DNA from: a virus
Length of the DNA stretch: 64,000 bases
Virus record (IMG/VR): IMGVR_UViG_3300048592_000616
Span: 1-64,000 of that record
Direction: 5' to 3' (one strand)
Positions 1-38,411 of the stretch are shown one piece after another. The position numbers were made by a program, and so were the translations under genes. Under the pieces are notes generated by a model. The model saw only the letters and a list, made by a program, of their open reading frames with translations. It did not search any database and was not told where the DNA came from. Within the stretch, counting starts at the first letter, position 1; each line of letters opens with the position of its first letter.

Positions 1-360
1 CTATACCAGTACAACTACACCGGGCCGCGGTTCAGCAATGACCACGCCGTGACAATGCGCTCCATATGGAGCAACAGCATGGCCCGCCGCGCTGGGTTTG
101 TGCCCGTTGCTATCGCCGTTGACATCAACGCGCCGGACCCGCAATTGACCGATGACAGTTTGCCGCTTCAGCGCTTGCGTATCCCCGCCGGGTGCGCGGC
201 GTATGTGCTGGAGCATGAGCTGGAGAGTTAGCCATCATCCCGGCGACCGTCAAACCGCCGGAGTTGGGCGCCGCTGTTTCGGCGGCGTATCGGGTGCATA
301 CCAATTGTTGTGATCGAGAAAGGGGTCTGGACAACCCCGAAACAAAACCCGTAACGAGAC

Positions 361-402
361 GGGGGCGGGCTGGGTGCTAAGGCCCGCCCCCCCAGTTTTT
401 TT
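361..402 (+). terminator. Intrinsic terminator-like hairpin
   Basis: gggggcgggct...ggcccgccccc stem followed by agttttttt. Confidence 0.6.
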
Positions 403-414
403 GGAGATGTAATC

Positions 415-996
415 ATGTCTATAGCTTGGCATTTTGTGGGCGAAACACTGAGAGACGGGCGGCCAATCCCGCCTGATGGCGAATGGCTGGAGCATGACGG
501 CGACCTCGTGCTGTGCGAGTCCGGCTTGCACGCCAGCGAGCGCATCATCGACGCGTTGAAATACGCGCCGGGCGGGACCGTCTGCCGGGTGGAACTCGAT
601 GGTGAAATACTGAAAGACGACGACAAGGTTGTTGCCCGCCGCCGCCGCGTTTTGTGGCGCGTTGACGGCGAGGAAGTTTTACAGGCATTTTCCCGGCGCG
701 TGGCGTTGGACGTGGCGCACCTGTGGGATATGCCCGACGTTGTGCGGCAATACCTCGAAACGGGCGACGAATCAAAACGGTCCGCCGCATGGGCCGCCGC
801 ACGGTCCGCCGCACGGTCCGCCGCACGGGACGCCGCATGGGACGCCGCACGGGACGCCGCACGGGCCGCCGCATGGGCCGCCGCATGGGCCGCCGCATGG
901 GCCGCCGCAGGGGACGCCGCATGGGCCGCCGCATGGGACAAATGCAACACATGGCTTGAGGAAATGGTTGAGGCAGAGAAGGAGATGCAATCATGA
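415..996 (+). CDS. Phage hypothetical protein with AAW(A/D)/AAR(S/D) tetrapeptide repeats
   Basis: GGAG RBS; CESGLHAS motif and a 12-bp tandem repeat block, an architecture common in phage proteins. Confidence 0.8.
   Translation: MSIAWHFVGETLRDGRPIPPDGEWLEHDGDLVLCESGLHASERIIDALKYAPGGTVCRVELDGEILKDDDKVVARRRRVLWRVDGEEVLQAFSRRVALDVAHLWDMPDVVRQYLETGDESKRSAAWAAARSAARSAARDAAWDAARDAARAAAWAAAWAAAWAAAGDAAWAAAWDKCNTWLEEMVEAEKEMQS
784..939 (+). repeat. 12-bp coding tandem repeat (gccgcaYggNNc), about 13 units
   Basis: Read directly; in frame within 415..996. Confidence 0.9.
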
Positions 997-1151
997 GCGA
1001 CAACCGCCCCCTAACTTGGTACTACTGGCGCCCCGGCGCGGAAGACAAGTGGTGCTCTTGGCTTGAGACCGACGCGCCGCCCCTGTTTGCGCTGTACGAC
1101 GAGCGGCCGTTGCATGACATCATCCTGAAGCAGATAGCGAAGGAGTGCTAA
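993..1151 (+). CDS. Small hypothetical protein (52 aa, MSDNRPLTWYYW...)
   Basis: ATGA overlap with the upstream stop, AGGAG RBS, fills the gap exactly; too short for the ORF track. Confidence 0.55.
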   Translation: MSDNRPLTWYYWRPGAEDKWCSWLETDAPPLFALYDERPLHDIILKQIAKEC

Positions 1152-1877
1152 GTGGATCGACAAACCTTTGACGCAATGGAACCCAACGCCCGCGCAATGG
1201 TCCAGCATCTTATCGACGCCAGCGATGGCGGTTTGGCGTTGGACGATGTGCCGGACGAGGTGGCGCTGGTCAGTCTGCGCGAACCGACGGAGGCCGAGAA
1301 GGAGTACGGGGCACAGTTGGTCGGCCGTCTGAGAGAGCCTGAAACGTCTGGCCCGCCTCGCTCGAAGCAACGGCCGTTGCGCTCGGCACTGGCGGCCGTC
1401 CAGCACGACATCTGGGCGCACTGGATGCGCTACCTGTTCAGCGTCAGCAACAGGGGAGACGATGGATCGGTGCTGATCCCGGCCGACAAGGTGGAACGCT
1501 GGGAACGCCAGATGTACACCGACTACGATGATCTATCCGAGGAGGAACAGGCCAGCGATCTCGAGCAGGCCGACAAGGTCCTGAGCGTATTCGACGTTGT
1601 GGCCTACGACGCACCTGAATACATGAAAGGGCCGGAATGGGATGAGTGGCTGGAGGATAGCGCGCGCACCTTGGTCGGCGAGGATAAAAGGTGGGGACTA
1701 ATGTCGTCACGCGGCGCGTGCAAGCTGGTCAGCTGGGTCACTATTGCCGACTTGCTGACCCGGCTGCCGGAAGGCGAGCCGTTTGTATTCACCGTCACGG
1801 ATCGGCCGTTGGTCACGTTTGAGCTTGAGCGGCTGGCGCGTCGTGAGGCGCGGTTGGCAAGGGAGGCATATGGCTGA
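1152..1877 (+). CDS. Hypothetical protein with RyR-domain-like segment
   Basis: HDIWAHWMRY...YDDLSEEEQASD resembles phage RyR-repeat proteins; coupled to both neighbours. Confidence 0.55.
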   Translation: MDRQTFDAMEPNARAMVQHLIDASDGGLALDDVPDEVALVSLREPTEAEKEYGAQLVGRLREPETSGPPRSKQRPLRSALAAVQHDIWAHWMRYLFSVSNRGDDGSVLIPADKVERWERQMYTDYDDLSEEEQASDLEQADKVLSVFDVVAYDAPEYMKGPEWDEWLEDSARTLVGEDKRWGLMSSRGACKLVSWVTIADLLTRLPEGEPFVFTVTDRPLVTFELERLARREARLAREAYG

Positions 1878-2559
1878 GCAAACTTACCTGACACGTTACT
1901 TCGACCACCATCTGGGCGGCTCTCTGCCAACGGCAACCGGCGGTCTCCTAAGCGCATGTGCGGTCTGCGGCTTGGATACGGCCGACGATCTGGATGTTAA
2001 CAAGGTGTTACGGCCGACATTCACTGATCGCGATTTGCTGCGCGCGCCGGAGAGCCGGGTATGCTGCCAGTCATGCAGCGCTTACTTCGATCATCAGGAG
2101 CTTCGCCGCGAAAACTGGTGGCTGGCGGCCAAGCATGCCGAAACAATAAGCCGCAAGGCAATTCGACCGTACATCGACCGACTCCTGGCCGAACCGCTGC
2201 CGGAGTCCGGCTACTTTCTGGTGACAACTGCCAAGCGTAAGCATATCGGCTTGCGCGCGCCGCTGAACGTCGCCGGGAACCGCCATTTGAAAGTGCAGTT
2301 TGAGCTAGCCACGCTGGAGATCGACGCGTCGCGTTGGAGCTTGCTAACTGCCGCCTGTGACACCTTGCGTCGCCATCACACTTGGCAGGAAATAACCGGC
2401 GACGGCTACCAGTCCTGGCGGCTGGCCAAATGGCAAGACGCCATTGACGAGTTCGCCGCCGCACGCGATGCCATCCGGCCGTTTTTACGCACGCCATACC
2501 TGGACTTGGTGCAATTCTGTGGCGATCTCGCCGCAAAGGAAGAAGAGGATGCCGACTAA
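1870..2559 (+). CDS. csf1: Type IV CRISPR-associated Csf1 (Cas8-like, Zn-binding)
   Basis: GGAGG RBS and ATG at 1870; CAVCG...TFTDRD...VCCQSC, KRKH..RAPLN and QEITGDGY motifs; first gene of the csf operon. Confidence 0.8.
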   Translation: MAEQTYLTRYFDHHLGGSLPTATGGLLSACAVCGLDTADDLDVNKVLRPTFTDRDLLRAPESRVCCQSCSAYFDHQELRRENWWLAAKHAETISRKAIRPYIDRLLAEPLPESGYFLVTTAKRKHIGLRAPLNVAGNRHLKVQFELATLEIDASRWSLLTAACDTLRRHHTWQEITGDGYQSWRLAKWQDAIDEFAAARDAIRPFLRTPYLDLVQFCGDLAAKEEEDAD

Positions 2560-2971
2560 AGAAGAGTTGACCGTTATCGCCGGTGGGGCGATGGCTGATG
2601 AGTATTATGAGACATGGCTGCTGCTGGTCATTGTCTGGCGCAACATTTGGCGCAATTCGCGCACCGACTGGTCGCGCTACCGGTTGCGCGTCTGGGACAT
2701 GTTCAGTGATCGCGTGCGGTTGTCCGCGCGCATGGGGCGGGGGGTAGACGGTTTCATCTCCGAGATATGCGGCCACTTTCATATCAACGCGCTGGGCGTG
2801 AACAACGATGAGCGCGCGGCCGTCCAGAAACTGCTGGCCCTGCCCGTCGATGACCACCGGCGGATGATGAACCATCTACGAAACAATGCGCCGGTGGTCA
2901 TCGCGTTCCTGCGAATTTATCGTGACGCCGTGCGCGCCGAACTTGAAGGAGAGAGCAATGAAAAAGCGTAA
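2549..2971 (+). CDS. cas11: Type IV-B small subunit, Cas11/Csf4-like
   Basis: About 140 aa, helical, WDMFSDRVRLSAR...FISEIC; lies between csf1 and csf2 with overlapping start/stop. Confidence 0.7.
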   Translation: MPTKEELTVIAGGAMADEYYETWLLLVIVWRNIWRNSRTDWSRYRLRVWDMFSDRVRLSARMGRGVDGFISEICGHFHINALGVNNDERAAVQKLLALPVDDHRRMMNHLRNNAPVVIAFLRIYRDAVRAELEGESNEKA

Positions 2972-3902
2972 CATCATCCGTATTGCCGGTATTGCCACGC
3001 TGTCCGAGCCGCTTATCCACGGCGGCGAACGCAGCGGCGGCACCGTCACCGAGTTTCGCCGTGAAAAAGTCCGCGTAGACGGCGCGTTTGAGTACCTGCC
3101 GGTCTACTCCGGCAATGCCGTGGCCGGTCTGACGCGCGACAACTGCGCCTTCTGGTGCCTGGACCAGTTGCCGAACTTCAGTAAGTTCACCGATCTTCGC
3201 GCGTTCGACTTGCTCACCGGCGGCGGCCATCTAACGGCCGCCAAGGGAGACAAGTACGTCAACCTGTTTGAAGAAGCCGAGCTGCGTGAGATGTTCCCGG
3301 TCATCTCGCTGTTCGGCGGTAGCATCGGTAACCGCATTCTCGGCGGCCGTCTCGACTTCGCTAACTGGGTACCAATCTGTCAGGAGTGGCGCGACTACCT
3401 GCCGGAAGATATCCGGCCGCGGGCCGACGGCGTGTATATGTCCGACTTGTTGCAGGTGCTCAATTGGACGCGGCGCGACGACAAAAAGAACCGCGCCATG
3501 CAGGACCTGATCGACGCCGACACGCTGGCAGACTGGCAGCGTGAGACCGGCGAGCGCACCGAAAACGACGAGGCCGAGACAAGCGGCACGGCGATGTCCA
3601 TGCGCTATGGCTATGAAGCGCTGGCCACCGGCACGGAGTTGTATGTCGAGATGACCTTGCGCAACCCGTCTGATGTGGAACTCGGCGTGTTCTTCGGTGG
3701 TCTGACGTACTTCTACGAACGGCCGAAGATCGGCGGTCGCGGTAGTCGCGGTTGCGGCCGGGTCAGGCTGGACTTGCGCCAGTACAAAGTCACCGGCCCG
3801 GCGCAAATCGAAGAACCGATGGCTATCGGCGCTATGGAAGCGGCCGCCGCGCACTTGGCCGCGCATGAGGTGCAAATTCTGGAGGCGTTCAAGTCACTAT
3901 GA
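2958..3902 (+). CDS. csf2: Type IV CRISPR backbone RAMP protein Csf2 (Cas7)
   Basis: PLIHG, PVYSGNAVAGLTRD, LLTGGG, PVISLFGGS, TRRDD, YEALATGT and G-rich loop IGGRGSRGCG. Confidence 0.9.
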   Translation: MKKRNIIRIAGIATLSEPLIHGGERSGGTVTEFRREKVRVDGAFEYLPVYSGNAVAGLTRDNCAFWCLDQLPNFSKFTDLRAFDLLTGGGHLTAAKGDKYVNLFEEAELREMFPVISLFGGSIGNRILGGRLDFANWVPICQEWRDYLPEDIRPRADGVYMSDLLQVLNWTRRDDKKNRAMQDLIDADTLADWQRETGERTENDEAETSGTAMSMRYGYEALATGTELYVEMTLRNPSDVELGVFFGGLTYFYERPKIGGRGSRGCGRVRLDLRQYKVTGPAQIEEPMAIGAMEAAAAHLAAHEVQILEAFKSL

Positions 3903-4732
3903 ACCACTATGAGCCGTTACGTGTCGTCGCCGAACTGCGCAGCCAGGTGATGGTGGAGCGATGGCCGATGCTGGACGCCGTCATGGCCGCCACGGTGATT
4001 GACGACGGCCAGTCACGCGAACGCGCCCGACAAGCGCGCCGGTACTACTTCTATCTCAAGAACTGCCGCAAACACGGCCGTCAGGAAACCGACGACTGGT
4101 ACCGGAAGAGCGAGAAATATGGTTATATCCCGGAGCCGGTCTGGAACGGCCACTTTCTGCCGCTTGGCGTCTTCGGTCACGGCCTGGAACACGGCGTCTG
4201 GACTTACCGCTGCTCCACGGCCACGCCGGTTGGTGACTATGAGCTGGACACCGTCCACTTCACCAAGCGCATCGACTGGCTTGGTGCGGTGGACTACGTT
4301 CAGGCCGCCGACCGGAAGATAAACATCGGCAAAGGCGCGTTCGTATCGCAGTACATACCGTATCAGACCGTCGCCGTGGAGGCGCTGGAATGGCACATCT
4401 TCGGCGTGGCCGAGGAAGTGGGGGCCATCCTTGACGCTGCGCTGAGCATCGGCAAGAAACGGAGGCGCGGTTACGGGGTCATCAAGCGCTGGCACATCGA
4501 ACAGGCGGCCGACGACGAGTCGGTGTTCACGCGCGACGGCTACCTCGCCCGGCCGGTGCCGGTGGACCTGCTCGATGAGATGCACATTACCGGCGACTTC
4601 GAAAAGGAATTCTGCGGCTTTCGGCCGCCGTATTGGCAATATAAAAACATTCGCACCTGCGCCGTGCGCGGCCGGAGGCAAGACCATGCGTTGGATGAAG
4701 CGCGATCTCAGACCGGTCGCCAACCTGTATAA
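3899..4732 (+). CDS. csf3: Type IV CRISPR RAMP protein Csf3 (Cas5)
   Basis: PLRVVAEL, LDAVMA, IGKKRRRGYG glycine loop, RPVP and RPPYW; follows csf2. Confidence 0.85.
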   Translation: MNHYEPLRVVAELRSQVMVERWPMLDAVMAATVIDDGQSRERARQARRYYFYLKNCRKHGRQETDDWYRKSEKYGYIPEPVWNGHFLPLGVFGHGLEHGVWTYRCSTATPVGDYELDTVHFTKRIDWLGAVDYVQAADRKINIGKGAFVSQYIPYQTVAVEALEWHIFGVAEEVGAILDAALSIGKKRRRGYGVIKRWHIEQAADDESVFTRDGYLARPVPVDLLDEMHITGDFEKEFCGFRPPYWQYKNIRTCAVRGRRQDHALDEARSQTGRQPV

Positions 4733-5384
4733 CGACAAGACGGTAGATCACTTCATTGCCGTCAAACACGCCTGGGCGTGGCAGGCTGTTCGACATCTGC
4801 GGCCGTCACCACGGGTTCTAGAGACAAATGCCGGGTATGGTTGGCTAACAGTAACCTACGGCACGGCCGGAGCGCGGGTGACAGCAATAGACCGCGATGC
4901 TGCCGCAGTCGAGTGTTTGCGCATTAACACAACCGGTTTGGAGACCGTTTGCATCCACGGCGACAACAAGCTTATTGCCGAGCGGCCGCTGGGACCGTTT
5001 GACATCATCGATATCGACGCCACCGCCTCACCGCAACCAATGCTGGATGCGGTTCTCCACCACTACCGGCCGCCAATTCTATTTGTTACCTTCGGCGATG
5101 TGTTGCACTTTCGCCTCAATCGCGGCACCGAACTCAAGTCCGGGTTGGCGCGATATGGCGATACGTGGCGGAACCATCAGCATGAGTTAACACGTGGTGC
5201 ACAGAACTTCGGTGAAGTCATCGGGTTTAATTACATTCGCAGCGCTTGGCCGGATGCCATTTTGTCGGCCTGCCACATCTGGCCGATGACCGGATCGACG
5301 CGGTTGGCCGTTACGCTTGGTACCGATCTTAAGCTGATGACCGTGGATGAGGCGGTTGTGTGGAGCATGGTGCAGCAACAATGA
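4686..5384 (+). CDS. Class I SAM-dependent methyltransferase, Trm1-like
   Basis: GGAGG RBS; motif I VLETNAGYG, AIDRD, FDIIDIDATASP (compare Trm1 FDxIDLDPYGSP). Confidence 0.7.
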   Translation: MRWMKRDLRPVANLYNDKTVDHFIAVKHAWAWQAVRHLRPSPRVLETNAGYGWLTVTYGTAGARVTAIDRDAAAVECLRINTTGLETVCIHGDNKLIAERPLGPFDIIDIDATASPQPMLDAVLHHYRPPILFVTFGDVLHFRLNRGTELKSGLARYGDTWRNHQHELTRGAQNFGEVIGFNYIRSAWPDAILSACHIWPMTGSTRLAVTLGTDLKLMTVDEAVVWSMVQQQ

Positions 5385-6088
5385 TCTACGTGACCCCAGT
5401 GCCACGCGAGCTGCGCGGCCGTCTGACATCTCTGTGCCGCCTCTACGCCTACCCGGCCGAACCGGAAGCCCCGCCCCCGGATGGCTTTGCTATCCTCGAC
5501 AGCGGCGCTTTCGGCCTATCCCAGCGCGGCGAGAAGATGACGCCGCGCTGGATGCGTGGTTTGGCCGAGCACTACCGTCGTCACGGCGGCGAGCGAGTCG
5601 TCTGTATCGCGCCGGACGTGTTCTTGGACCCGGCCGCGACGGTGGCGAACTGGCACTGGTGGCAAAAAGAGCCCGTTGTGACCGTCGCGCCGGTGATCCA
5701 GTTCCGGCACAAGCGCAAGCTGGACGTATACACCGCTATCCAACAAGCCAAAGCCTATGCTCCCGCCCGTCCACCGTTCGTCGCCATATCTAACCCCGGC
5801 CTGCGCGCCGTCGAATGCCGCGACCTGATGCCGGTCATCTGCGCGCAAGTCAGAGCCATCACCGGCGCGAAGTGGCTCCACAACCTCGGCGCGGGCTGGG
5901 ACATGGCCGATATCCACGCCTGGCGCAACCTCGGCTGCTTTGATTCCATCGACTCCATTGCTTACTACACGGCCGCACAAGACGGCATTGACTGGTCCGC
6001 CCGGGGAGCGACCACCTGGCCGGAGCGGGCGGCGCACAATGCATTAGCGGCACAACCAGTTTCCGAAACTGGTCATCAAACCTATTGA
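5381..6088 (+). CDS. tRNA-guanine transglycosylase/DpdA-like TIM-barrel protein
   Basis: ILDSGAF, APDV, PVIQ, HNLGAG and FDSIDS motifs in the TGT-fold order; ATGA-coupled to the methyltransferase. Confidence 0.7.
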   Translation: MIYVTPVPRELRGRLTSLCRLYAYPAEPEAPPPDGFAILDSGAFGLSQRGEKMTPRWMRGLAEHYRRHGGERVVCIAPDVFLDPAATVANWHWWQKEPVVTVAPVIQFRHKRKLDVYTAIQQAKAYAPARPPFVAISNPGLRAVECRDLMPVICAQVRAITGAKWLHNLGAGWDMADIHAWRNLGCFDSIDSIAYYTAAQDGIDWSARGATTWPERAAHNALAAQPVSETGHQTY

Positions 6089-6113
6089 CACTGTACACAC
6101 GGTGGTGTATACT
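6085..6113 (+). promoter_or_regulatory. Sigma70-type promoter
   Basis: TTGACA-17 bp-TATACT, overlapped by a gtacacac...gtgtgtac inverted repeat. Confidence 0.7.
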
Positions 6114-6165
6114 GTGTGTACGGTTAAGCAATCGAGCATGACCGAAGCAAGATAGGAGACACGAA

Positions 6166-6390
6166 ATGCAGGTATACGAGGTTACTTTCAAAGCGAATGA
6201 AGATGGACTCGGCCCGACGCTGAATCTGAAGCTTGATTACGACAAGGGCGAGTGGATGGAGCCGGTTGACACCGACGACGACGGCAATGAAGTATACGCT
6301 ATTTACAGCATATACAGCATTGACCAATTGCTCGACAATGCGCCGAATGTCATCAAGTACATCATCCACGATGAAATAGATGAGGCGTAA
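6166..6390 (+). CDS. Small acidic hypothetical protein
   Basis: AGGAG RBS directly after the promoter. Confidence 0.7.
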   Translation: MQVYEVTFKANEDGLGPTLNLKLDYDKGEWMEPVDTDDDGNEVYAIYSIYSIDQLLDNAPNVIKYIIHDEIDEA

Positions 6391-6403
6391 CAGGAGAAAC
6401 GAA

Positions 6404-6637
6404 ATGGCAAGCAGCGTTTATATTCGAAAAGTTACACAAGGAAAACCGGCCAACCAAACGCTGGTATCGGCCGTTTGTGTCGAAGACGGCGTGGCGGTTG
6501 CACAGTGGTCCTACATCAAGAACGGCAATGGCGGCTTTATCAACGAGCCGCAAGATTTGGTCGGTGCGAGTTTGTCTGAAATTCTCAAGTGTGGCTACCA
6601 TCGAGACATGAGCCTCGCGTTCGAGGACTGGGGCTAA
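6404..6637 (+). CDS. Hypothetical protein
   Basis: AGGAG RBS; TAATG coupling to the next gene. Confidence 0.65.
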   Translation: MASSVYIRKVTQGKPANQTLVSAVCVEDGVAVAQWSYIKNGNGGFINEPQDLVGASLSEILKCGYHRDMSLAFEDWG

Positions 6638-7020
6638 TGGCCCGACCCGACCGATTTTCCATTAGCCTCGGCGCTGACCACGAGCAGCGCCGAGGCGCTT
6701 TGAACGACCTGGCGGCCGATATGCAAGCCATCGGCCGCAACGGGGTGCCGAGCGTCTCGGCGCTCATCTCTGCGCTGGCCGACGCCTACAGCGACCGGCC
6801 GGAGTTGGTGGCGGCCGGGCTGATAGCGCTGCTTGAAGCGGCGCGCGATCCGGCCGAGCGCGACACAGACGGTAACGTTATCCGCGTCCGGTTGTGGCCG
6901 GACCCGGAACGCGAAGACGGCTGGGTCTACGGCGACCCAACAGACTACGACCCGCGCCAAGTGGCGGCGATACGGCCGCCGTATGGCGTGGACTACTATG
7001 ATGAGGATGAAGAAGAATGA
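6637..7020 (+). CDS. Hypothetical protein, possible N-terminal ribbon-helix-helix
   Basis: RFSISL strand followed by helices (VSALISALAD); coupled start. Confidence 0.6.
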   Translation: MARPDRFSISLGADHEQRRGALNDLAADMQAIGRNGVPSVSALISALADAYSDRPELVAAGLIALLEAARDPAERDTDGNVIRVRLWPDPEREDGWVYGDPTDYDPRQVAAIRPPYGVDYYDEDEEE

Positions 7021-7071
7021 CCGGCCCATGTGCGGCCGTGGCCTCGACCGGGCCTGGCGAGTGGCCTCATC

Positions 7072-7090
7072 AGAACACCCGTGCTATAAT
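7072..7090 (+). promoter_or_regulatory. LexA-box-like site overlapping an extended -10
   Basis: AGAAC-accc-GTGCT overlapping TGcTATAAT. Confidence 0.55.
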
Positions 7091-7214
7091 TCTGGTCAAT
7101 AACAAAGCGTCCTGGCGAGTGCGTCAACACTCCCAGGACATGGCGACTGGTATCAGCAGTCACGGAATAGAGTCTAACCGACGCCTCCGCGACTGGCAAC
7201 CGTGGAGGCGTTTC

Positions 7215-7625
7215 ATGTTTTACATTTATGGGTTACGCGAGAAAGGCAGTGATGAGTATCGGTACGTTGGGTCTACGGTCGATATGCAGCGTCGGTGGTG
7301 GGGTCACATCCGAGGCATCGAGAACCCAGAAACGTCCGGGAACCCGCCGCTGTACGAGTGGCTGGGTGGACTATACGGCTTTGAGATGGACTGCCTGGAA
7401 GAAGTCGCCGAAGATCGGCGTGCCAAAGAAGAACGGTGGATCAATAAGCTCCGCGGTGAAGGTCACCGACTATTCAACATCCGGTCCGCGGCCGTTATGG
7501 TGATCGGCATAGCAGATATGTCGAACGAAACCAAGAGGGGTGTCGTCGCGCAGTACCTGGATAAGTTTGGTGACGACCACGATGGGCCTTGGATGAAAGA
7601 GGCCAAATGGGTTTACATCGTCTAA
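7215..7625 (+). CDS. GIY-YIG family endonuclease
   Basis: YIYGL...RYVGST, RRWWGH, KEERWI and LFN motifs. Confidence 0.85.
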   Translation: MFYIYGLREKGSDEYRYVGSTVDMQRRWWGHIRGIENPETSGNPPLYEWLGGLYGFEMDCLEEVAEDRRAKEERWINKLRGEGHRLFNIRSAAVMVIGIADMSNETKRGVVAQYLDKFGDDHDGPWMKEAKWVYIV

Positions 7626-7696
7626 ACCTATACTTGCTCAAATATCCATTATAATAAGTATGACTATCCAAGCAGGGGTGGCTTATCCCCCGCCCT

Positions 7697-8044
7697 ATGG
7701 AGATGACAATGATTCCTGAAAACGATGATGCACCCGACTTTTCGTTTTACGAGATATACAGGCTCGTGTTTGAGCGGCGCAACGCCGCTCACTCTATACC
7801 CGGTGAGATGTATGTCCTGGGCACGTGCCTAGAGGATGCAATGGATCGCTTCAATGCGTATGCCGACCACCGAACGATCAGCACTTGGCGCGGCGAGGTG
7901 GTTGTTATTAGCAGCGTTGGTCGCCTTGGTGACATTGAGGTCATGCACACGCTGGAGACGACGGCCGAAGACGACGCCGCGGATCGACTCCATCCATCCC
8001 CTGCCCGGCCTGCGCCGAAAGGGTCCGCGGTCAGGTCGGGCTAG
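7697..8044 (+). CDS. Hypothetical protein
   Basis: ORF with a GGAG RBS (true start may be 7709); its 3' end runs into a duplicated gene remnant. Confidence 0.55.
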   Translation: MEMTMIPENDDAPDFSFYEIYRLVFERRNAAHSIPGEMYVLGTCLEDAMDRFNAYADHRTISTWRGEVVVISSVGRLGDIEVMHTLETTAEDDAADRLHPSPARPAPKGSAVRSG

Positions 8045-8160
8045 TAATTCGCGTCAACCGCAAGACCGACACCGGCGCGGCCGCAGCGGCATCTACGTCT
8101 GCGACGAGGACATCGCGGGCTGGGCCTTCCTACCTGCGCACATCCCGCCACAAGGAGAAG
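7992..8160 (+). pseudogene. Degenerate copy of the Zn-finger gene 8514..8750
   Basis: 27 bp identical (7992-8018 = 8540-8566) and 17 bp identical (8050-8066 = 8598-8614) at the same 58-bp spacing; no start codon of its own. Confidence 0.7.
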
Positions 8161-8161
8161 C

Positions 8162-8362
8162 ATGAACAATAACTTGCCGGAAATGGTTGGAACCTTTTTT
8201 GTCAACGTGGCGATCATCGGCCTATTGACGGTGCTTCTGTCTGCATTTGCGTGGGGCGTGGTCAACCACCCTGTCCCCACAGCAATTGTCGTAATTGCGG
8301 CGGCCGCGCTCTGGGCGATGATCATTGCCTTTACCCGGCCGCCGAACGATCCAATGATATGA
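8162..8362 (+). CDS. Small two-TM membrane protein
   Basis: AAGGAG RBS; two hydrophobic helices. Confidence 0.65.
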   Translation: MNNNLPEMVGTFFVNVAIIGLLTVLLSAFAWGVVNHPVPTAIVVIAAAALWAMIIAFTRPPNDPMI

Positions 8363-8513
8363 GCACCCCCGTCCCCGCCCCGGCCTGCGCCGACAGCAAC
8401 GCGGCCGCGCCTGCCCCGTCGGGCGCTAGGAGCATCGCTGCCCACACGGAATATACCCGACGTTCGCGACCGAGGAACAGGCGCGACCGTGCCCACAGTA
8501 TACCGGAGAAGTT

Positions 8514-8750
8514 ATGAACACCCAACCGACCCCCACCCTATCCATCCCCTGCCCGGCCTGCGCCGAGAGCGGCCGCGGGCACACCCTGCTCGTCGTCCGC
8601 GTCAACCGCAAGACGGGCACCGAATTCCTGGCCTGCCCGGAGTGGCCGGAGTGCACATATACTCAGCCGATCCCGGAGAGCGTCCTCATGCGCCTCGCCG
8701 GGCAGCCGACGCTGTTCGACACGGCCGCGCCCCAAGGAGAGACCTCATGA
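8514..8750 (+). CDS. Topoisomerase C4-type zinc-ribbon protein
   Basis: CPAC...LVVRVNRKTGTEFLACPEWPECTYT. Confidence 0.8.
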   Translation: MNTQPTPTLSIPCPACAESGRGHTLLVVRVNRKTGTEFLACPEWPECTYTQPIPESVLMRLAGQPTLFDTAAPQGETS

Positions 8751-8944
8751 GCGCCGCCCCCGGCCCCTCAGAGCGAGTCCTGGAGACCGACCGCTGGATC
8801 ATCGACCGGGAAAGCGACGGAACGTATACAGTCGTCGATATGCACGGCCGGTCGGTGCTGACCGGCATCCCGACGATCGAGGACGCCTACGCCGAAACCG
8901 GGCACCCGGCACCGGACGACACCCAGCCGGAGCAAACCCCATGA
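8747..8944 (+). CDS. Hypothetical protein
   Basis: AAGGAG RBS; ATGA overlaps on both sides. Confidence 0.55.
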   Translation: MSAAPGPSERVLETDRWIIDRESDGTYTVVDMHGRSVLTGIPTIEDAYAETGHPAPDDTQPEQTP

Positions 8945-9291
8945 ATGACGACGATAACATCCAGCCCGGCTGCGGCTGCCGCTATGGGCTGATCAGTCTG
9001 CTCATGTTCGCGGCCGCCTTTGGGTTCCTGCTGTTGCTCATCAACGTCGGCCGCGCCGTCTACCCCACCCTCGCGCCGGAGCATCGCAATACGTTCATCT
9101 GGGCGTTCCTGGCCGGGTTGCTCATCTTTGGCGTGGTCAGCGGGGTATCAAAGATCTACGCCGGGCACATGGGTTCAGCCAACGGCAAACAGGTTGTAGC
9201 CGGGCTGGAAGGCGACGGCCGCTCCTGCATCAAGACAGTCATCGGCATCGTCGTGGTCCTGGCGCTCGTGGCGGCCGCGGTGCTGATATGA
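8941..9291 (+). CDS. Three-TM membrane protein
   Basis: Three hydrophobic segments. Confidence 0.65.
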   Translation: MNDDDNIQPGCGCRYGLISLLMFAAAFGFLLLLINVGRAVYPTLAPEHRNTFIWAFLAGLLIFGVVSGVSKIYAGHMGSANGKQVVAGLEGDGRSCIKTVIGIVVVLALVAAAVLI

Positions 9292-9317
9292 CGACAAGCA
9301 GATAACGAGGTTAAAAC

Positions 9318-10493
9318 ATGAAACAAGTAATTGCGACGGAACGAGTTCCGATCAAGCTGTGGCTTGATGACATGGAGGAAGGCGCATTGGCGCAGGCGAG
9401 GAACCTTGCCAACCTGCCGTTTGCCTTCAAGCATATTGCTATCATGCCGGACAGCCACCAGGGGTATGGTATGCCCATTGGCGGCGTTCTGGCGACGCAG
9501 CACTACATCGTCCCCAATGCTGTCGGGGTAGACATCGGCTGCGGCATGTGCGCCGTCAGGACGAACCTGGACCATGTGGAGCGAGACTCGCTTAAGGCTG
9601 TCATGGGGCGCGTGAGGCAGACGGTGCCGGTCGGGTTCAACTCGCACGAGACGGTCCAAAGCATCCCGCTGGAACCGACCGGCAAAGTCAGCGACCTCGT
9701 TCAGCGCCTGTGGGATCAGGCCCTATTCCAGGCCGGGACGCTCGGCGGCGGCAACCACTTCATTGAGTTCCAGGCCGGATCGGACGGCTACGTGTGGATC
9801 ATGATCCATAGTGGATCGCGCGGACTCGGCTTCAAAACGGCCGGGCACTACGCCAAGCTGGCCGAGGAGACCAACACGCGGTACTTCTCATCGGTTGATC
9901 CTAAGCAGGGGTTGTCATTCCTGCCGTTCGACGACGCGGCCGGTCGGCAGTACTTCGAGGACATGAAGTTCTGCACAGAGTACGCCTACCACAACCGCCG
10001 TCTGATGCTGGACAGAATTCAGGAGGCGCTTGCCGAAGTCGTGCCGTCAGTTACGTTCTCGCCGGAGATAAACCTGCCGCACAACTACGCCGCCTTTGAG
10101 AACCACTTCGGGCAGAACGTTATCGTTCATCGGAAGGGCGCGACGCAGGCCAAGGCGGGCCAGGTCGGCATCATCCCCGGCTCACAGGGTTCCGCGTCGT
10201 ACATCGTCGTTGGCAAGGGTAACCCTGACAGCTTTGAGTCCTGTTCGCACGGCGCGGGCCGCCGCATGGGGCGCAACGTGGCGCGAAAGACCTTGGACTT
10301 TGAGGGCGAGACCGAGCGGTTGAATGAGATGGGCGTGCTACACGCCATTCGCGGCGTTGGCGATCTGGATGAGGCCCCCGGTGCATACAAGGACATCGAG
10401 ACGGTGATGCTTAACCAAGAGGACCTGGTCGAGCGCTCGGTTCGGTTGGTGCCGCTGGGCGTCATCAAGAGTTCGGACGGTGGTTATGACTGA
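9318..10493 (+). CDS. rtcB: RtcB family RNA ligase
   Basis: MPDSHQGYGMPIG, VGVDIGCG, GTLGGGNHF, HSGSRG, HN, HRKGA, SCSHGAGR and DEAPGAYK. Confidence 0.95.
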   Translation: MKQVIATERVPIKLWLDDMEEGALAQARNLANLPFAFKHIAIMPDSHQGYGMPIGGVLATQHYIVPNAVGVDIGCGMCAVRTNLDHVERDSLKAVMGRVRQTVPVGFNSHETVQSIPLEPTGKVSDLVQRLWDQALFQAGTLGGGNHFIEFQAGSDGYVWIMIHSGSRGLGFKTAGHYAKLAEETNTRYFSSVDPKQGLSFLPFDDAAGRQYFEDMKFCTEYAYHNRRLMLDRIQEALAEVVPSVTFSPEINLPHNYAAFENHFGQNVIVHRKGATQAKAGQVGIIPGSQGSASYIVVGKGNPDSFESCSHGAGRRMGRNVARKTLDFEGETERLNEMGVLHAIRGVGDLDEAPGAYKDIETVMLNQEDLVERSVRLVPLGVIKSSDGGYD

Positions 10494-11337
10494 CACACCG
10501 GCCGCACAAAGCCGCCAGCTGCGCGAGGTGCGGGTGAGCGTTGACGGCCGTGACGTCGGCATCATCCACCCCACCGACGTCACGATAACGCCACTGCCGG
10601 TGCAGTTCGACGCGGACGTTGCTGACGGTCTTCGGCCGTTCGAGGCGGCCGCGCCGATCTTGGAACCCGTATCGTTTTCAGTGACCAGCCAGATGACGGA
10701 CAAAACGGCTCGCGTGCTGTTTGGTCAAAAGGAGCACAACCCCGTGACTGACTTTATCGACATCACCAACCCGACCGCACTGCAGGCTCACAAAGACGAC
10801 TGGGTCTGCGACGAATACGACCGGCTCTCCGAAGACGTATACGACGCCTATATGGACTCGTTGATCGCCCATATCAGCTACGTCCGCGAGGCTGGGTTGC
10901 GACTGCGCGTGCCCGATCTTCTTTTGCAAGGGCACGATCAAAGCAAGTTCAGCGGCCGAGAGTTCTATGGCTACGCCATGCACTTTCAAGGCGGTGGCGC
11001 ACCGGCCGCGTTCGCGCGGGCATGGCTGCATCACATCCATCACAACCCGCATCATTGGCAGCATTGGCTGTTTGCCGACGGGTTCACGCCGAAAGGCAGC
11101 GACGTCGAGAACGGCGCTGTGCCGATGCCGGGCATGTATGCGCTGGAAATGGTGGCCGACTGGTTGGGCGCTGGCCGGACGTATACGGGATCGTGGGACA
11201 TGACCGAGTGGCTGGAGGTGAACGTGCCGCGCATTCGCGTTCACAGCGCCACGGCCGTTTACCTGGCCAGGATATTGAACGACCTCGGTTACCGTGTGGA
11301 CCCGGCCGCCTTTGGGTCCGCCCTCAAGCAAGGGTAG
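10486..11337 (+). CDS. HD-like metal-binding protein (DUF5662-like) with N-terminal extension
   Basis: HDQSKF, AWLHHIHHNPHHWQHW, EMVADW. Confidence 0.75.
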   Translation: MTDTPAAQSRQLREVRVSVDGRDVGIIHPTDVTITPLPVQFDADVADGLRPFEAAAPILEPVSFSVTSQMTDKTARVLFGQKEHNPVTDFIDITNPTALQAHKDDWVCDEYDRLSEDVYDAYMDSLIAHISYVREAGLRLRVPDLLLQGHDQSKFSGREFYGYAMHFQGGGAPAAFARAWLHHIHHNPHHWQHWLFADGFTPKGSDVENGAVPMPGMYALEMVADWLGAGRTYTGSWDMTEWLEVNVPRIRVHSATAVYLARILNDLGYRVDPAAFGSALKQG

Positions 11338-11340
11338 TCA

Positions 11341-11853
11341 ATGGGACGCTTTTTATTTGCCCTGGTCGGTTGCGTGGGTTTGCTGCTTATTGCGGCTAGT
11401 TCCGTTATCGCCATGCCCGCCGACCCGCCGCCCCCGCCGCCCGCGCGGCCGCCGGGGCTGTTCATCACCGTCTACGACTGGTCGCTGGGCGGCATCAATT
11501 GCAATGAGGACTGCGGGCAGACCTCGCTGACGACGACCGGGCCGGAGTTGTTCGGGTGGACGGCCGCTTGCCCCGTCGCGTGGTTAGGGCACATCAACAC
11601 GACCGTCGTGACGATCTGGGGCCAGGAATACTGGTGTATTGATGCGTTCGGCGACGAAGTCAACCAGCGGCTGACGACGGTCAACGGCCGCCGGGTGTAT
11701 CGCATCGACATCGCCGACAGCCCGCCAGCCGCGCACCCGTGGAACCAGGAGTGGGTGCCGTGGGGCGACTGGTCGAAGGAGTGGCGGCCGATGGCTGAAT
11801 TCAACGAAATTCGCGAAGCGCGACGGGCGGCGACGGCCGTCCTGGGAGACTGA
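11341..11853 (+). CDS. Secreted protein, 3D/RlpA-like domain
   Basis: Signal peptide, Pro linker, ITVYD..GGINC, TAAC, CIDAFG, RIDI. Confidence 0.5.
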   Translation: MGRFLFALVGCVGLLLIAASSVIAMPADPPPPPPARPPGLFITVYDWSLGGINCNEDCGQTSLTTTGPELFGWTAACPVAWLGHINTTVVTIWGQEYWCIDAFGDEVNQRLTTVNGRRVYRIDIADSPPAAHPWNQEWVPWGDWSKEWRPMAEFNEIREARRAATAVLGD

Positions 11854-11859
11854 ACCGGG

Positions 11860-12093
11860 ATGACGGCTCCCGCATTCCCCGACCAGCCGCCGCCCGTGGG
11901 CGAGAGCGACGTGGTCCTGCCAGTGGTGGTGGCCGCGCTGACAGCCCGCGCCGAACAGGGGCGCGTCAAGTACGGCACCTACCTGCGGGTCCGCAACGGC
12001 CGCGACCCGTTGATCGACGCCTGGCAAGAAGCGGCCGACCTGCTGATGTACCTGACCCAGGCCATCATGGAGCGCGACGGTTCGCTGCCGTGA
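11860..12093 (+). CDS. MazG-like/all-alpha NTP pyrophosphohydrolase-like small protein
   Basis: GRVKYGTYL..NGRDPLIDAWQEAADLLMY. Confidence 0.55.
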   Translation: MTAPAFPDQPPPVGESDVVLPVVVAALTARAEQGRVKYGTYLRVRNGRDPLIDAWQEAADLLMYLTQAIMERDGSLP

Positions 12094-14416: not shown

Positions 14417-17400
14417 TCACTCCGCGCAGGTGATGACCTGGCGGCGGTTGTCCGGCCGCTGGCCCGGCGCGTGGGCCTCGCTGATCTCGCTGCGCTGGCC
14501 GTCGGCCTTCGTCCAGGTCACCAGCCCGTACATCCGCGAGAAGGTCCACGTCTCCTCGACGCGGCCGTTGGGCAGCAGCCACTGCAAGAGGATGCAGTCC
14601 CCAACGAATATCCCATTGACCATCATTGCCTTCTGCGCGGCCGCCAGGCGGATCGTTGACGGCTGGCGGCGCTCCTCGGTCGTTTGGCAGTCGGCGATCC
14701 GCTGCCAGCGCACGAGCGGGTTACGCGGGAACGTCTCCCCCACGGCCATCCGGCGCGGTGCCCAGACGCTGCCATAGACCCCCGGCGCGCCATAGAGCGT
14801 GTACATCATCCCGCCGCCCGGCGACGTGTCGCGGCCGCGATAGATGGCCTTGTCGTCCGCGCCGAAATGCTCCCACTCGGCCGATAGCTCGTTGCCCTTC
14901 GTCAGGTAGTACCAGCCCGGCCGGTGCGGGTCGCGCTGGGTCTGGTGGCGCGCCTGGCTGCCGCTGCTGTGGCGCACCTCGAAGAGCGGCCCACGGCCGT
15001 CCGGGCCGAGCATCCCGGTCATGTAGGGCAGGAGGTCGATCTTGGTCGGGTCGGGTGGCTGCGGCTCCGGCTTCGGCGGCTGAGGCTTGGGTGGCGTCGG
15101 CGTTGGCGTCGGTGGTTTCGGCGCGGGCAGCGCGTCCTCCGGCCCGACGACGCGGACGGCGTCCCACTCCCCCACCGGCGCGTAGTAGACCAGCGTCTCC
15201 CCGGCCCGGCCGCCCGCGCGGCGGTAGGCATAGCTCACGCCGTCGATGACCTCGCGCTGCTCATCGGAGAGCGGATAGAGACCGTCCTCCAGCATCGCCG
15301 CCTGCAAAGCGAAGGTCGGCGTGTTGGCGATCCCCGGCGCGGCCGTGCCCAGCCGCCACATTGTCTCGGCCAGCGTCGGCGGCCTCGGCTCCGGCACGCC
15401 GCGCGGGATGAGGTACGCGGCCAGGTCGTCCGCCGTGCCGTTGAAGCGGTTCAGGTCGATCCGGGCGCTTGACGCGCCATAGCTCGGCCCGTGGCCGTCG
15501 TTGGCGTACTGCCAGAAGGTCCAGCCCCGGCCGCTGGCCCACGGCTCCGGCACGAGCGGCCGCGTGCCCTTGGTCCAGTTGGCGATCCATAGGTCGAAGG
15601 CCGCGCCCCATTTCGGCGCGCCCAGGGCCGAGCGCCAGTAGCTGTAGTTGGTATAGAGGATCGGCAGCCGGTCGATACCCATCTCGTCGAGGCGTACTTG
15701 CAGGCGCTCCAGGAACTCCAACACAAACGCCGCCCGCTCGGTCACGGTCAGGCCGTTGAAGTTCCCGTCCTCCAGGTCCAGCACCGGCGGTAGGTCGCAG
15801 CCGTGCCGCTCGATGACGGCCGCGAACGTCTCCACCTGCTCCTTGGGCGGATCGAAGAAGTGCAGGTAGTGGTAGAAGCCATAGGGTAGCCCGGCCGCCA
15901 TCGCCGCCGGGGCATACTCGTCCACCCGCTCGTCCTGGTGCTTGCCATACGACGCGCGGATGAAGGCGAAGTCAACCTTGGCGGCCGCCTTGCCAAAGTC
16001 CATCGCCCCCTGCCACTTGGAGACGTCGATCCCGATGACCTCGCCGCCCGGCTCCGGCTTCGGCGGTTCGGGCTTCGGCGGTTCCGGCGCGGGCGGTTCG
16101 GGTTCGGTGACGGCCGCGCGCAGGGACCAGCCGTCCAGGAAGAAATTGTTGGAAATGCCCCACTCGGCCGACATGTGGACGGCCAGCTTGAGCGGCCCGC
16201 CGCCGTGGGTGAAGGCGGTCGATATCTCGCGGTAGACCGGCCCGGTCGCGGCCGCAGGCCAGATGTCCAGCGGCCCGGCGACGGCCTGGTCGTTGACCTT
16301 GAGCGTATAGCGCGCCGAGTTGGTCTCCACCCGGTAGTCGCGCTTCTTGTCCGTCATGCGGTAGAAGTCCAGCCAGCCGCGCCACGTGAACACGTACCGA
16401 CCAGCCGGTAGGTCGGGGAACTCCTGGACCAGGCGCGCCCAGAACGGTCGCCCGCCCGCGAACAGCTTGTAACACCACTGCCCATCGCGGATGAACCGCG
16501 CCGCCTCGTCGGCCGGTAGCTGCGCGGCCGACTTGTGGACGCCCTCCGGCTCGCCATACGCCTGGCCGGAGATCGGCGACTTGCCCGTATTCCAGGCGAA
16601 GCGCCAGCCGCGCGGCTGCTGGCTGGACTGGCTGATGTCGTCCCAGCCGCCCTCAAAGCCGGGGTTGGCGAGTAGCTCGGCCGTGCCCGGCGTGGGTGGC
16701 TTCGGCGGGTCCACCGGCGACGGCGTTGGCGCGTTGTCTTTGATGCGGTCCAGCAGGGCAACCTCGACGGCCGTGCCGGAGATGTCCCACTCCTTCCACA
16801 CGCCCACGCTCCCCACCGTAAACACGGCCGCGCCGACCACATAGTCATCCTCGCGGATGCGCCGGTCATACCAGGCCAGCATGTCGGCGTACTTCTGTGG
16901 GTCCAGACCCATCGCCCGCCATGACCCCACCGGCGCGCCCTTCGGCGTCACCGAGGCCACATCGTCACACCCGGCCTCGGTGATGATGAGCTGCGTGTCC
17001 CCCAGTCCGGCCGGGGCCAACACCGTGTCCCACACGTAGCGATAGCGCAGGGCAGCCCAGCCCCAGGGATAAGAGCGGTCAGGGCGGCCGTGCCACACAT
17101 CGGCCGTCAGGTTGCCGTTGGCGTCCACCTGTTTCCAGCCTACCCCATAGTCGGCCTCGTAGCCCATGTACTCGTGGAGGGCGATGTAGTGGCCGTTGTC
17201 GCGGGCGTGGCGAACGGCCGGGAGCAGATGAGGCCAGATGTCCATGCTTGGCGTGCCCACGGCGAAGCTGAAGTTGGCCCGCTTCTTGCCGATGGACTCA
17301 TACAGCTTCATCATCTCGATGCAGTAGGCGCTGTACCAGGCCGCCTCATTCGCGTTGTCCGGGGGTATCTCGTTGTCATCCTCCCACACGTCAATGCGCG

Positions 17401-17701: not shown

Positions 17702-17816
17702 GGCATCCTCCCACGGCCGCTGCGAGGCGGCCACTGTCTCCCCCTGCTCCCGTCGTCAATTCCCGTCTGTCGCTCGAATTCATGACATCCACCTCCGGCC
17801 GATATTGTATCACAAC

Positions 17817-37784: not shown

Positions 37785-38411
37785 ATGGGTGGCGGCGACA
37801 TGGTCAGCGGCGCGCCCGCGGCCGTCAACGGCGGCCTCATTGTCGGCCGGGAGCTGCGCGAGTTGGTCATGGAGGCCATCGACCTGGCGATACCCACTCA
37901 GAAGCGGACCAACAACGTGCCCTCGTGGGGGCTGGGACCGGCCGGGTACGACGTGCGGTTGCGGCAGTTGATGGTGCGGCAGTTCGCCCTCGCCGACCCC
38001 GGCGAGGCGGCCGATCCGCAGCTCATCGACCCGATGGACGACAGCCAGGGACCGTACATCTCGCTGCCCATCGGCGTCGCCAAAGACGGCCGCGACTACG
38101 TGATCATCAGCCCCCGCGCGGCCGTGTATGCCGAGACGGTCGAGGCGTTCGACATCCCCGACGACGTGCTCGTCCTGCCGGTCGGCAAGTCCACCTACAC
38201 CCGGCACGGGCTGGCGCTGCTGGCGACGCCGTTTGAACCGGGCTGGCGCGGCTGGCCGCGGGTGACACTGGTCAACACCACCGACCGGCCGATCAAGTAT
38301 TACCTCGGCGGCGGCGGGATGCAGTGTCTGTTCTTCCGCGTCCCCGGCGCGACGGCCTACGACGGCCGTTATCAGGATCAGCAACCGACCCAGGATGGCC
38401 GAAGCGCGTAA
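37785..38411 (+). CDS. dcd: dCTP deaminase
   Basis: GLGPAGYDVRL, GKSTYTRHG, TPFEPGWRG, YDGRYQDQ. Confidence 0.85.
   Translation: MGGGDMVSGAPAAVNGGLIVGRELRELVMEAIDLAIPTQKRTNNVPSWGLGPAGYDVRLRQLMVRQFALADPGEAADPQLIDPMDDSQGPYISLPIGVAKDGRDYVIISPRAAVYAETVEAFDIPDDVLVLPVGKSTYTRHGLALLATPFEPGWRGWPRVTLVNTTDRPIKYYLGGGGMQCLFFRVPGATAYDGRYQDQQPTQDGRSA

Follow-up and report, generated by a model that had tools for sequence, protein, structure and literature searches.

A minimal TGT/DpdA-fold protein in the CysH slot of a phage-borne, array-less type IV-B-like Csf cluster

Introduction

What does a type IV-B CRISPR-Cas complex do on a phage that carries neither a CRISPR array nor the CysH-like partner of such complexes? 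The CysH-like gene is called strictly conserved and ubiquitous in type IV-B systems by Taylor et al. (PMC8175902), and reviews place the key to type IV-B function in that uncharacterised accessory (PMC8175902). The question is raised by six genes at positions 1870 to 6088 of IMG/VR virus record IMGVR_UViG_3300048592_000616, a record of 73,423 b with an estimated completeness of 72% (CheckV), the first 64 kb of which (64,000 nucleotides) are here called the window. There, the genes of a type IV-B-like Csf complex run into a gene for a Trm1-like methyltransferase and a gene for a protein with the fold of tRNA-guanine transglycosylase (TGT) and of DpdA. We propose, with a probability of about 0.6, that the cluster is a self-contained phage-borne module in which an array-less type IV-B-like Csf ribonucleoprotein (RNP) has a minimal TGT/DpdA-fold guanine transglycosylase as its accessory.

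Results

Open reading frame (ORF) calling placed six ORFs with overlapping stops and starts on the plus strand at 1870-6088, and the order read by an initial annotation from the letters alone, csf1-cas11-csf2-csf3-methyltransferase-TGT, was recovered in full, with identities assigned by PADLOC or by fold. The first ORF, csf1 (1870..2559, 229 aa), encodes a type IV Cas8-like large subunit with a cysteine-rich N-terminal part and matched PADLOC Csf1_0_IV over residues 29-208 (1.4e-23) and NCBIfam TIGR03114 (3.9e-11). Overlapping it by 11 nt, cas11 (2549..2971, 140 aa) encodes the type IV small subunit (PADLOC Cas11_1_IV, 4.2e-10; Cas11_0_IV, 3.3e-8) and is 51% identical to the corresponding ORF of a related locus, L003. 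After a 14-nt overlap follows csf2 (2958..3902, 314 aa), the type IV Cas7 backbone subunit, with a full-length match to Csf2_0_IV (2.9e-57) and matches to TIGR03115 (5.3e-18) and phrog_22746 (4.8e-45); it is 34% identical to Orf42 of Skermania phage SPI1. The fourth, csf3 (3899..4732, 277 aa), shares an ATGA overlap with csf2 and encodes a type IV Cas5 (Csf3_0_IV, full length, 8e-36; TIGR03116, 4e-12; phrog_34599, 1e-18). The overlaps of stops and starts suggest translational coupling.

At 43.1, 65.4 and 46.2 bits, Csf1, Csf2 and Csf3 fall far under the NCBIfam equivalog cut-offs of 140, 130 and 140; the CysH-type Csf2 of phage SPI1 is likewise under its cut-off, at 79 bits. Homologues of csf1 adjoin the TGT-like gene in related loci. 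On these matches we regard the four Cas gene calls as sound. Variants of the gene set were seen elsewhere. The ORF caller gave four loci (L008, L011, L012 and L022) no separate cas11 and a csf2 ORF about 130 aa longer (420-457 aa), which suggests a Cas11-Csf2 fusion, and two csf3-like genes per module were found in L087/L088 and in L156-L158, one a TGT-type and the other a CysH-type lineage.

The last ORF of the cluster (5381..6088, 235 aa), in ATGA overlap with the methyltransferase gene, encodes what we call the TGT-like protein, a minimal TGT/DpdA-fold protein predicted from its fold to be a guanine/7-deazaguanine transglycosylase. It was modeled from a 43-sequence alignment (AlphaFold2 [AF2] pLDDT 96.6, pTM 0.93), and when the model was compared with the PDB by Foldseek, the top 50 matches were all tRNA-guanine transglycosylases (best E 7e-5, TMq 0.57-0.64). 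Phage proteins named "queuine tRNA-ribosyltransferase" were the best viral fold matches in BFVD (E 2.5e-7); they are of the kind now known as DNA transglycosylases (DpdA). TGT and DpdA clusters of the ESM Atlas lay at TM 0.70-0.77 to the TGT-like protein.

The sequence relationship to TGT is distant, and profile-profile alignment with six bona fide TGTs was weak (E 0.013) but coherent, at about 14% identity. Within that weak alignment, LDSGAF of the family stands opposite DSGGFQ of the TGTs, PVIQ opposite VQGG, SNPGL opposite GGL, HNLGAGW opposite MGVG, and FDSIDS opposite DMFDCV. An invariant aspartate, D191, and one that is at least 90% conserved, D40, thereby align, with the same weakness, with the aspartates of the TGT FDCV and DSGGFQ motifs, and Q107 and SNPGL align with VQGG and GGL. 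In the TGT of Zymomonas, DSGGFQ supplies the acid/base and FDCV the nucleophile. The zinc subdomain is missing, the TGT-like protein ending near TGT position 292 of 373, and no cysteine is invariant or nearly invariant among the 43 family sequences.

The TGT-like protein had no hidden Markov model (HMM) match in Pfam (E<=1), PHROGs or PADLOC, and a six-frame search of the record with Pfam DpdA gave 0 matches at E<=1. None of the ten weakest matches to the family profile belongs to a Pfam family, so that no sequence bridge to DpdA appears. Among 5.8 billion proteins 123 relatives were found, none with a Pfam domain; in a set of 1.84 billion, 129 representatives reached E<=1e-3, and at the family's margin scores fell off steeply. 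By these measures the TGT-like family is small and sharply bounded.

The surroundings of the gene were surveyed by scans with the TGT-like family alignment, which returned 27 viral loci, 6 loci of metagenome-assembled genomes (MAGs) and 78 metagenome loci; with the window these made 112 loci, or 70 clusters at 90% identity. ORFs were called in the loci and searched with HMMs built iteratively from the window proteins. A csf gene adjoins the TGT-like gene in 64 of the 70 clusters, the other six being contigs of at most 2.2 kb, and csf1, csf2 and csf3 are all present in 33 of the 37 clusters represented by a contig of at least 5 kb. Among the four exceptions, L045/46 and L057 are cut by contig ends and L036 and L094 look partial. 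The place of the TGT-like gene varies: in 42 full modules it lies after csf3 (19), between csf2 and csf3 (14), before csf1 (4), between csf1 and cas11 (4) or between csf3 and csf1 (1). No other flanking gene is common to the lineages around TGT-type modules. Linkage at shifting positions, with no other flanking genes in common, is what selection for a functional unit would be expected to leave. A working module of Csf subunits and transglycosylase is highly probable.

MAG contigs with the module are labelled Bacteroidota, Chloroflexota (two), Pseudomonadota, Bacillota and Spirochaetota. We conclude that the TGT-type module is widespread in uncultured phages. Two other accounts of the gene, chance adjacency and a misannotated glycoside hydrolase barrel, were rejected on the strength of the 64/70 linkage and of a Foldseek ranking made up exclusively of TGTs.

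In the type IV-B systems compared with the cluster, the accessory is a 3'-phosphoadenosine 5'-phosphosulfate (PAPS) reductase of the CysH kind: Skermania phage SPI1 has Orf40-43 and the PAPS reductase Orf44, and a PAPS-reductase gene adjoins the csf genes of plasmids pREL1 (Rhodococcus) and RHOApd. The initial annotation had proposed a neighborhood survey of Csf2 homologues, and a reciprocal scan confined to a single subclade of Csf2 recovered 37 viral loci, 11 of them TGT-type, 24 CysH-type and 2 cut off; a narrower Csf2 alignment scan returned only three contigs, all known. In all but one of the 24 CysH-type loci (23), csf2 and csf3 flank the PAPS-reductase gene, and the TGT-like gene occupies the same csf2-csf3 slot in sister operons with 40-46% identity in Csf2. 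Both genes were found together inside the operon in none of the 37 loci. PAPS_reduct was confirmed with Pfam in all four CysH-type loci tested, and in virus records with TGT-type modules it occurs in the operon in 0/28 and elsewhere in the record in 3/28.

Never together in one operon and found at one position, the TGT-like and CysH-like genes are alternative occupants of a single functional slot. Moreover, in a Csf2 tree four CysH-linked rows were interleaved among 43 TGT-linked ones, and well-supported branches force at least three changes, in a quick search with only those four CysH rows, which have long branches. The prediction that a nucleic-acid-modifying enzyme fills the accessory slot is supported, the TGT-like gene trading places with CysH. 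Q-related genes (QueT, YhhQ, QueC, the CxxCxxCC protein) were not detected in the CysH-type loci. In several CysH-type phage loci (L135, L140, L156-L158 and L160), the PAPS-reductase-like gene is accompanied by another, longer one (~350-440 aa) close by.

A literature search found no paper linking type IV-B or Csf genes with a transglycosylase, DpdA, deazaguanine or queuosine, though survey supplements might list TGT-like neighbors, and the words "transglycosylase" and "queuine" are absent from the main texts of Pinilla-Redondo et al. (PMC7038947) and Shmakov et al. We conclude that the form seen in the window, with a minimal guanine transglycosylase that is associated with Cas genes and fills the slot of CysH, is new within type IV-B.

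The absences that bear on the type IV-B-like assignment were checked over the whole 73,423-b record, and so over 9.4 kb beyond the window, in a record that is 72% complete. PAPS_reduct (PF01507) gave 0 matches, as did each of Cas1, Helicase_C_2 (the DinG type), Cas6f and Cas6e, with Cas2 and RecD not among the families searched for; CRISPR-like repeats were not found in the 73.4 kb. The description of the cluster as lacking cas1, cas6, dinG, cysH and an array therefore holds for the whole record, the statement on cas2 being outside the search, and the possibility that a cysH gene or an array lies just past the window was not realized in the rest of the record. The record encodes a terminase, a head protease, a head morphogenesis protein, a tape measure protein, an endolysin and DnaB, as well as ParA and an N6/N4 DNA methylase, and going by its structural and replication genes it is a tailed phage. 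With the PADLOC type IV matches and the lack of repeats, the structural genes uphold the original reading of a phage-borne, array-less, type IV-B-like cluster.

Genes inserted in TGT-type operons gave clues to the base that is exchanged. QueT was found inside or beside modules in 4 clusters (Pfam 1e-27 to 1e-40), YhhQ/Vut_1 in 5 and QueC, the preQ0 synthase, in 3, Pfam Vut_1 being the counterpart of COG1738. A CxxCxxCC protein of the YkgJ family, DpdM-like, occurs in 5 of the 70 clusters. According to published descriptions, queuosine precursors have just two known transporter families, QueT and COG1738/YhhQ (PMC11130926, PMC5372724), and the enzyme validated as the dPreQ1 methyltransferase, DpdM, is homologous to YkgJ and has a CxxxCxxCC motif (PMC10516641). 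The presence of QueT, YhhQ or QueC (12/70) and of DpdM-like proteins (5/70) in modules points to 7-deazaguanine chemistry, and a 7-deazaguanine is the probable exchanged base. Among the 28 virus records, 7 of them at least 90% complete, QueT is present in 6, Vut_1 in 2, QueC in 1, and FolE and QueD in none; on the absence of FolE and QueD, the TGT-type phages would depend on a base made by the host or salvaged. Such reliance would fit limited, targeted use of the base over replacement throughout the genome.

Other inserted genes were a Mom-family protein in 2 clusters, a 310-aa family in 9, grouped by the ESM Atlas with T4 beta-glucosyltransferase-like proteins (a lead only), and, inside TGT-type operons, Cas6f in 5 clusters (L014, L068, L070, L073 and L084) and Cas6e in 2 (L034 and L112). 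Arrays and mini-arrays were absent from the flanks of 8 Cas6-bearing or related loci. In a search of the window and five related loci, Rfam at the gathering score gave no riboswitch or other relevant RNA. A skipping-rope RNA (RF02924, 57 bits) was seen at L033:11895-11972, on an Anaerolinea MAG contig with a TGT-type module. Just ahead of the 310-aa family, a gap of some 115 nt is conserved (L014:6985-7110, and in L068, L073, L030, L031, L061, L114 and L005); considered at first as a candidate RNA, it was dropped because it aligns like coding sequence, and it is probably a small ORF below the length cut-off.

The fifth ORF of the cluster (4686..5384, 232 aa; METHYLTRANSFERASE), of which the database copy, P0179, starts at 4695, encodes a Trm1-like class I S-adenosylmethionine (SAM) methyltransferase, identified by fold and by HMM matches to Trm1 that all fall short of cut-off: Pfam TRM (PF02005) at 6e-4 and 19.5 bits versus a cut-off of 27, and NCBIfam Trm1 at 8.6e-6 and 24.8 bits versus 568. 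PADLOC mad2 matched at 3e-8. The best PDB fold match of its model (AF2 pLDDT 87.8) was Trm1 3axs (E 6e-9, TMq 0.62), and numerous other class I methyltransferases scored nearly as well. The protein matched only positions 75-173 of the 376 in the profile, and the two-domain architecture of Trm1 is not present. We conclude that it is a class I SAM enzyme. Motif IV of Trm1 reads D-P-F-G. In the window it reads DIDATASP (D-A-T-A), versus DPSG or DPAG in close relatives, DPFG in the homologues of L060 and L055 and DPYG in that of L063; because its motif IV differs from that of its relatives, the window enzyme may be impaired or divergent.

The methyltransferase family is tiny (6 clusters among 5.8 billion proteins), and scans of viral and metagenome contigs with it found no relative. 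Homologous methyltransferases adjoin the TGT-like gene directly in three further clusters, at different positions; by hhalign, the window family matched the L060 group with 97% probability and the L060 group matched the L063 group with 99.9%. For two members of the methyltransferase family, P0182 and P0184, co-occurrence with TGT-like and Csf2 proteins was seen only through equal lengths of the longest contig (30,800 and 109,627), which is suggestive only. In all, Trm1-like genes belong to the module in 4 of the 70 clusters. The claim that two enzymes share the accessory slot was thus half sustained: the link of the TGT-like gene stood, and the methyltransferase did not prove a co-equal partner. 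It is a recurrent, lineage-specific minor add-on and not part of the core, comparable to the DpdM-like, Mom-like and glycosyltransferase-like genes. The initial annotation was partly supported: its core stands, and it gave the methyltransferase too much weight.

Flanking features of the phage record

The upstream ORF (1152..1877, +, 241 aa), which overlaps csf1 stop to start, had no family match at threshold in Pfam, NCBIfam, PHROGs or PADLOC and no homologue among 27 related viral loci. It is probably cotranscribed with the module and is outside the conserved module. Directly 3' of the TGT-like stop lies a sigma-70-like, near-consensus promoter sequence (6085..6113, +; TTGACA-17-TATACT, 11 of 12 consensus matches), which is a consensus match only, 3 promoter-type sites being seen in the region versus 3.4 expected from shuffles. 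The predicted promoter would mark the 3' boundary of the operon. A palindrome (GTACACAC...GTGTGTAC) at 6085-6130 overlaps it and could be an operator.

Over positions 1-12000, GC content (0.56-0.63) and GC at third codon positions (GC3, 0.61-0.78) are below those of most of the remaining genome (GC 0.60-0.68, GC3 ~0.8-0.9), and given these values the early region with the module may have been acquired separately. The region also encodes a DUF7666 protein (415-996), in which a 12-nt tandem repeat (12 registers, 753-963) produces an alanine/tryptophan-rich, AAWxAAR-like repeat, and a GIY-YIG endonuclease (7017-7625), possibly a homing endonuclease. An RtcB-type RNA ligase (phrog_1075, 1.7e-114) followed by a DUF5662 protein (9318-11337) lies 3 kb downstream of the module, an RNA-repair function near two genes resembling those of tRNA enzymes.

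Further along, a 1,105-aa protein with an endolysin-like central domain is encoded on the minus strand (14417-17734), opposite to nearly all other genes; the terminase large subunit (38395-41175) is unusually long, at 926 aa, with an N-terminal extension; and a 775-aa protein (44546-46873) combines a head-maturation protease domain with an Ig-like domain. The window has no tRNA genes, and blastn of the region against GenBank phages gave no match.

Discussion

How might a Csf complex and a transglycosylase work together? In the mechanism that we favor, the Csf filament would assemble on RNA and present nucleic acid to the transglycosylase, most likely DNA paired with the bound RNA and otherwise the bound RNA itself. 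The transglycosylase, in which the subdomain that binds zinc and nucleic acid in TGT and DpdA is missing, would then swap guanine for preQ0 or preQ1, with the 7-deazaguanine base made by the host or salvaged. In this phage, methylation by the Trm1-like enzyme may follow, either of the newly introduced base or of a guanine close by, in the manner of DpdM in known phage pathways. The phage would probably gain by having its nucleic acid shielded from host defenses. We lean, by a little, toward DNA rather than RNA as the substrate, and sequence-specific guidance by the RNA is doubtful. A complex prediction for Csf1, Csf3 and the TGT-like protein scored 0.00 versus a mark of 0.32 and was uninformative either way.

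Known systems resemble the module in parts. Type IV-B systems (SPI1 Orf40-44, pREL1 and the complex of Mycobacterium sp. JS623) have the four effector genes in identical order, lie on mobile elements and are without array, Cas6, adaptation module or helicase. Their Csf2 proteins are 27-34% identical to that of the window, but the window record has no CysH-like gene, carries a TGT-fold enzyme instead, plus a methyltransferase, and encodes Csf proteins that fall short of the NCBIfam equivalog cut-offs. Bacterial TGT and the archaeal form ArcTGT supply the best solved-structure matches to the TGT-like protein, with which their DSG-x-F, VQ, G-x-G and D-x-x-D motifs line up in the weak profile alignment, whereas the TGT-like protein lacks the C-terminal zinc subdomain and PUA domains and is not matched by Pfam TGT. 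Trm1, the tRNA m2,2G26 methyltransferase, is the best fold and HMM match of the window methyltransferase, which has only the Rossmann half of that enzyme (232 aa versus a profile of 376 positions).

The DpdA transglycosylases (bDpdA with DpdB; DpdA1-4; DpdM, DpdN, DpdL) are alike in their TGT-type barrel. Their pathways are echoed by the QueC, Q-precursor transporters and YkgJ/DpdM-like protein beside relatives of the TGT-like gene, and DpdA2 with DpdM by the methyltransferase adjoining a transglycosylase. The TGT-like protein is, however, far smaller (235 aa), has no conserved zinc cysteines and no Pfam DpdA match, and has the Csf complex as its partner, in contrast to DpdB or nothing; FolE and QueD, moreover, are in none of the virus records with TGT-type modules. 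Cui et al. (PMC10516641) describe none of the five DpdA subfamilies with Cas genes, and the word "CRISPR" does not appear in their main text (0 occurrences). DpdM shares with the window methyltransferase its position next to a transglycosylase but is unrelated in fold, being described as a metal-binding YkgJ-like protein (PMC10516641).

In outline only, type IV-A with DinG is similar as a nuclease-free RNP with one dedicated accessory enzyme (PMC8175902). Both that system and the CRISPR-associated transposons differ from the module, in which the accessory is a base-exchange enzyme and no source of guide RNA was found. The transposons are a further case of nuclease-free Cas effectors that recruit another enzyme.

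Several observations weigh against the reading of the module as a Csf RNP with a transglycosylase accessory. For the enzyme itself, neither Pfam TGT (PF01702) nor Pfam DpdA (PF23859) matches the family; the family profile found nothing meaningful among PDB sequences (best E 0.43, a picornavirus VP3); the E 0.013 alignment sets an invariant aspartate, D79, a few residues off the aspartate of the TGT DEC motif; and with 0 matches in 50,697 GenBank phage records and 72,556 PLSDB plasmids there is no cultured carrier. For the linkage, L036 and L094 have only partial csf sets on contigs of at least 10 kb. For the chemistry, a Q-precursor gene (QueT, YhhQ or QueC) is present in only 12 of the 70 clusters, and in the record itself QueT, Vut_1 (YhhQ), QueC, PTPS (QueD) and GTP_cyclohydroI (FolE) are all at 0, QueE not having been searched for. 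Motif IV of the window methyltransferase departs from that of its close relatives. For guidance and substrate, searches turned up neither a guide RNA nor an array, a mini-array or a riboswitch, the RNA bound by type IV-B complexes is reported to be heterogeneous (PMC7937560), and the accessories point both ways, the Trm1-like enzyme and RtcB to RNA and the Mom-like, DpdM-like and T4-glucosyltransferase-like proteins (the last a language-model lead only) to DNA.

The alternative that survives best keeps the same components and makes RNA the substrate: Csf would bind host or phage RNA, such as tRNA or small RNAs, and both enzymes would modify its guanines, for example to reprogram tRNAs or to protect them from anticodon nucleases. 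We consider this unlikely, though a serious competitor. The closest characterised folds, TGT and Trm1, are those of tRNA enzymes, RtcB lies 3 kb downstream, and the lack of a full preQ0 pathway in all 28 virus records agrees with a demand for the base that is low and targeted; type IV-B complexes, moreover, bind heterogeneous small RNA (PMC7937560, PMC8175902). Set against these points are the neighbors from DNA-modifying families (Mom, YkgJ/DpdM-like and, as a lead only, T4 beta-glucosyltransferase-like), the best viral fold matches, which are DpdA-kind phage proteins, and the loss of the zinc subdomain with which TGT acts on tRNA.

A second alternative makes the TGT-fold protein an effector of interference, recruited by Csf to remove or exchange bases in the DNA of a competitor or host and so damage or silence it in a conflict between mobile elements of the sort put forward for other type IV systems. 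Type IV systems have been tied to competition between plasmids (PMC7038947), and the presence of Cas6f or Cas6e in 7 of the 70 clusters suggests that some lineages have a defined RNA that is processed; however, the flanks of the Cas6-bearing or related loci hold no arrays or mini-arrays, the module is without a nuclease partner, and the base-supply (QueT, YhhQ, QueC) and DpdM-like genes in the operons argue for the insertion of a specific base, so that we regard this role as improbable. Least credible, and very improbable, is that the Csf complex is an anti-CRISPR sponge for host crRNA with both enzymes as unrelated neighbors, an idea that fits an array-less cluster on a phage and was raised by Pinilla-Redondo et al., who call it unlikely (PMC7038947), but that needs no enzyme, transporter or QueC, leaves all of these unexplained, and gains nothing from a TGT-like gene that sits at varying positions in the csf operons of 64/70 clusters, in phages of at least five bacterial phyla, and alternates with CysH in one slot.

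With the array-less Csf RNP and its transglycosylase accessory as the preferred reading, a bolder form can be put forward, which we hold only tentatively and think unlikely as it stands. The RNA bound by Csf would bring the minimal DpdA-like transglycosylase to complementary DNA, where guanine would be exchanged for 7-deazaguanine at sites specified by the RNA as a form of epigenetic writing, and, by way of the alternation of CysH and TGT-like genes, type IV-B systems in general would be RNA-directed base modifiers and not agents of interference.

The slot of CysH here holds a member of an enzyme family with well-understood chemistry, and relatives carry genes for the supply of 7-deazaguanine precursors, which opens the function of type IV-B to direct assay. 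If the exchange is RNA directed, the module would be a natural RNA-guided base exchanger and would also form a sixth, Cas-dependent branch of the DpdA transglycosylases. The pairing of a Csf complex with a transglycosylase-type enzyme, found again in many uncultured phages, is a chemical clue to the role of array-less type IV-B systems.

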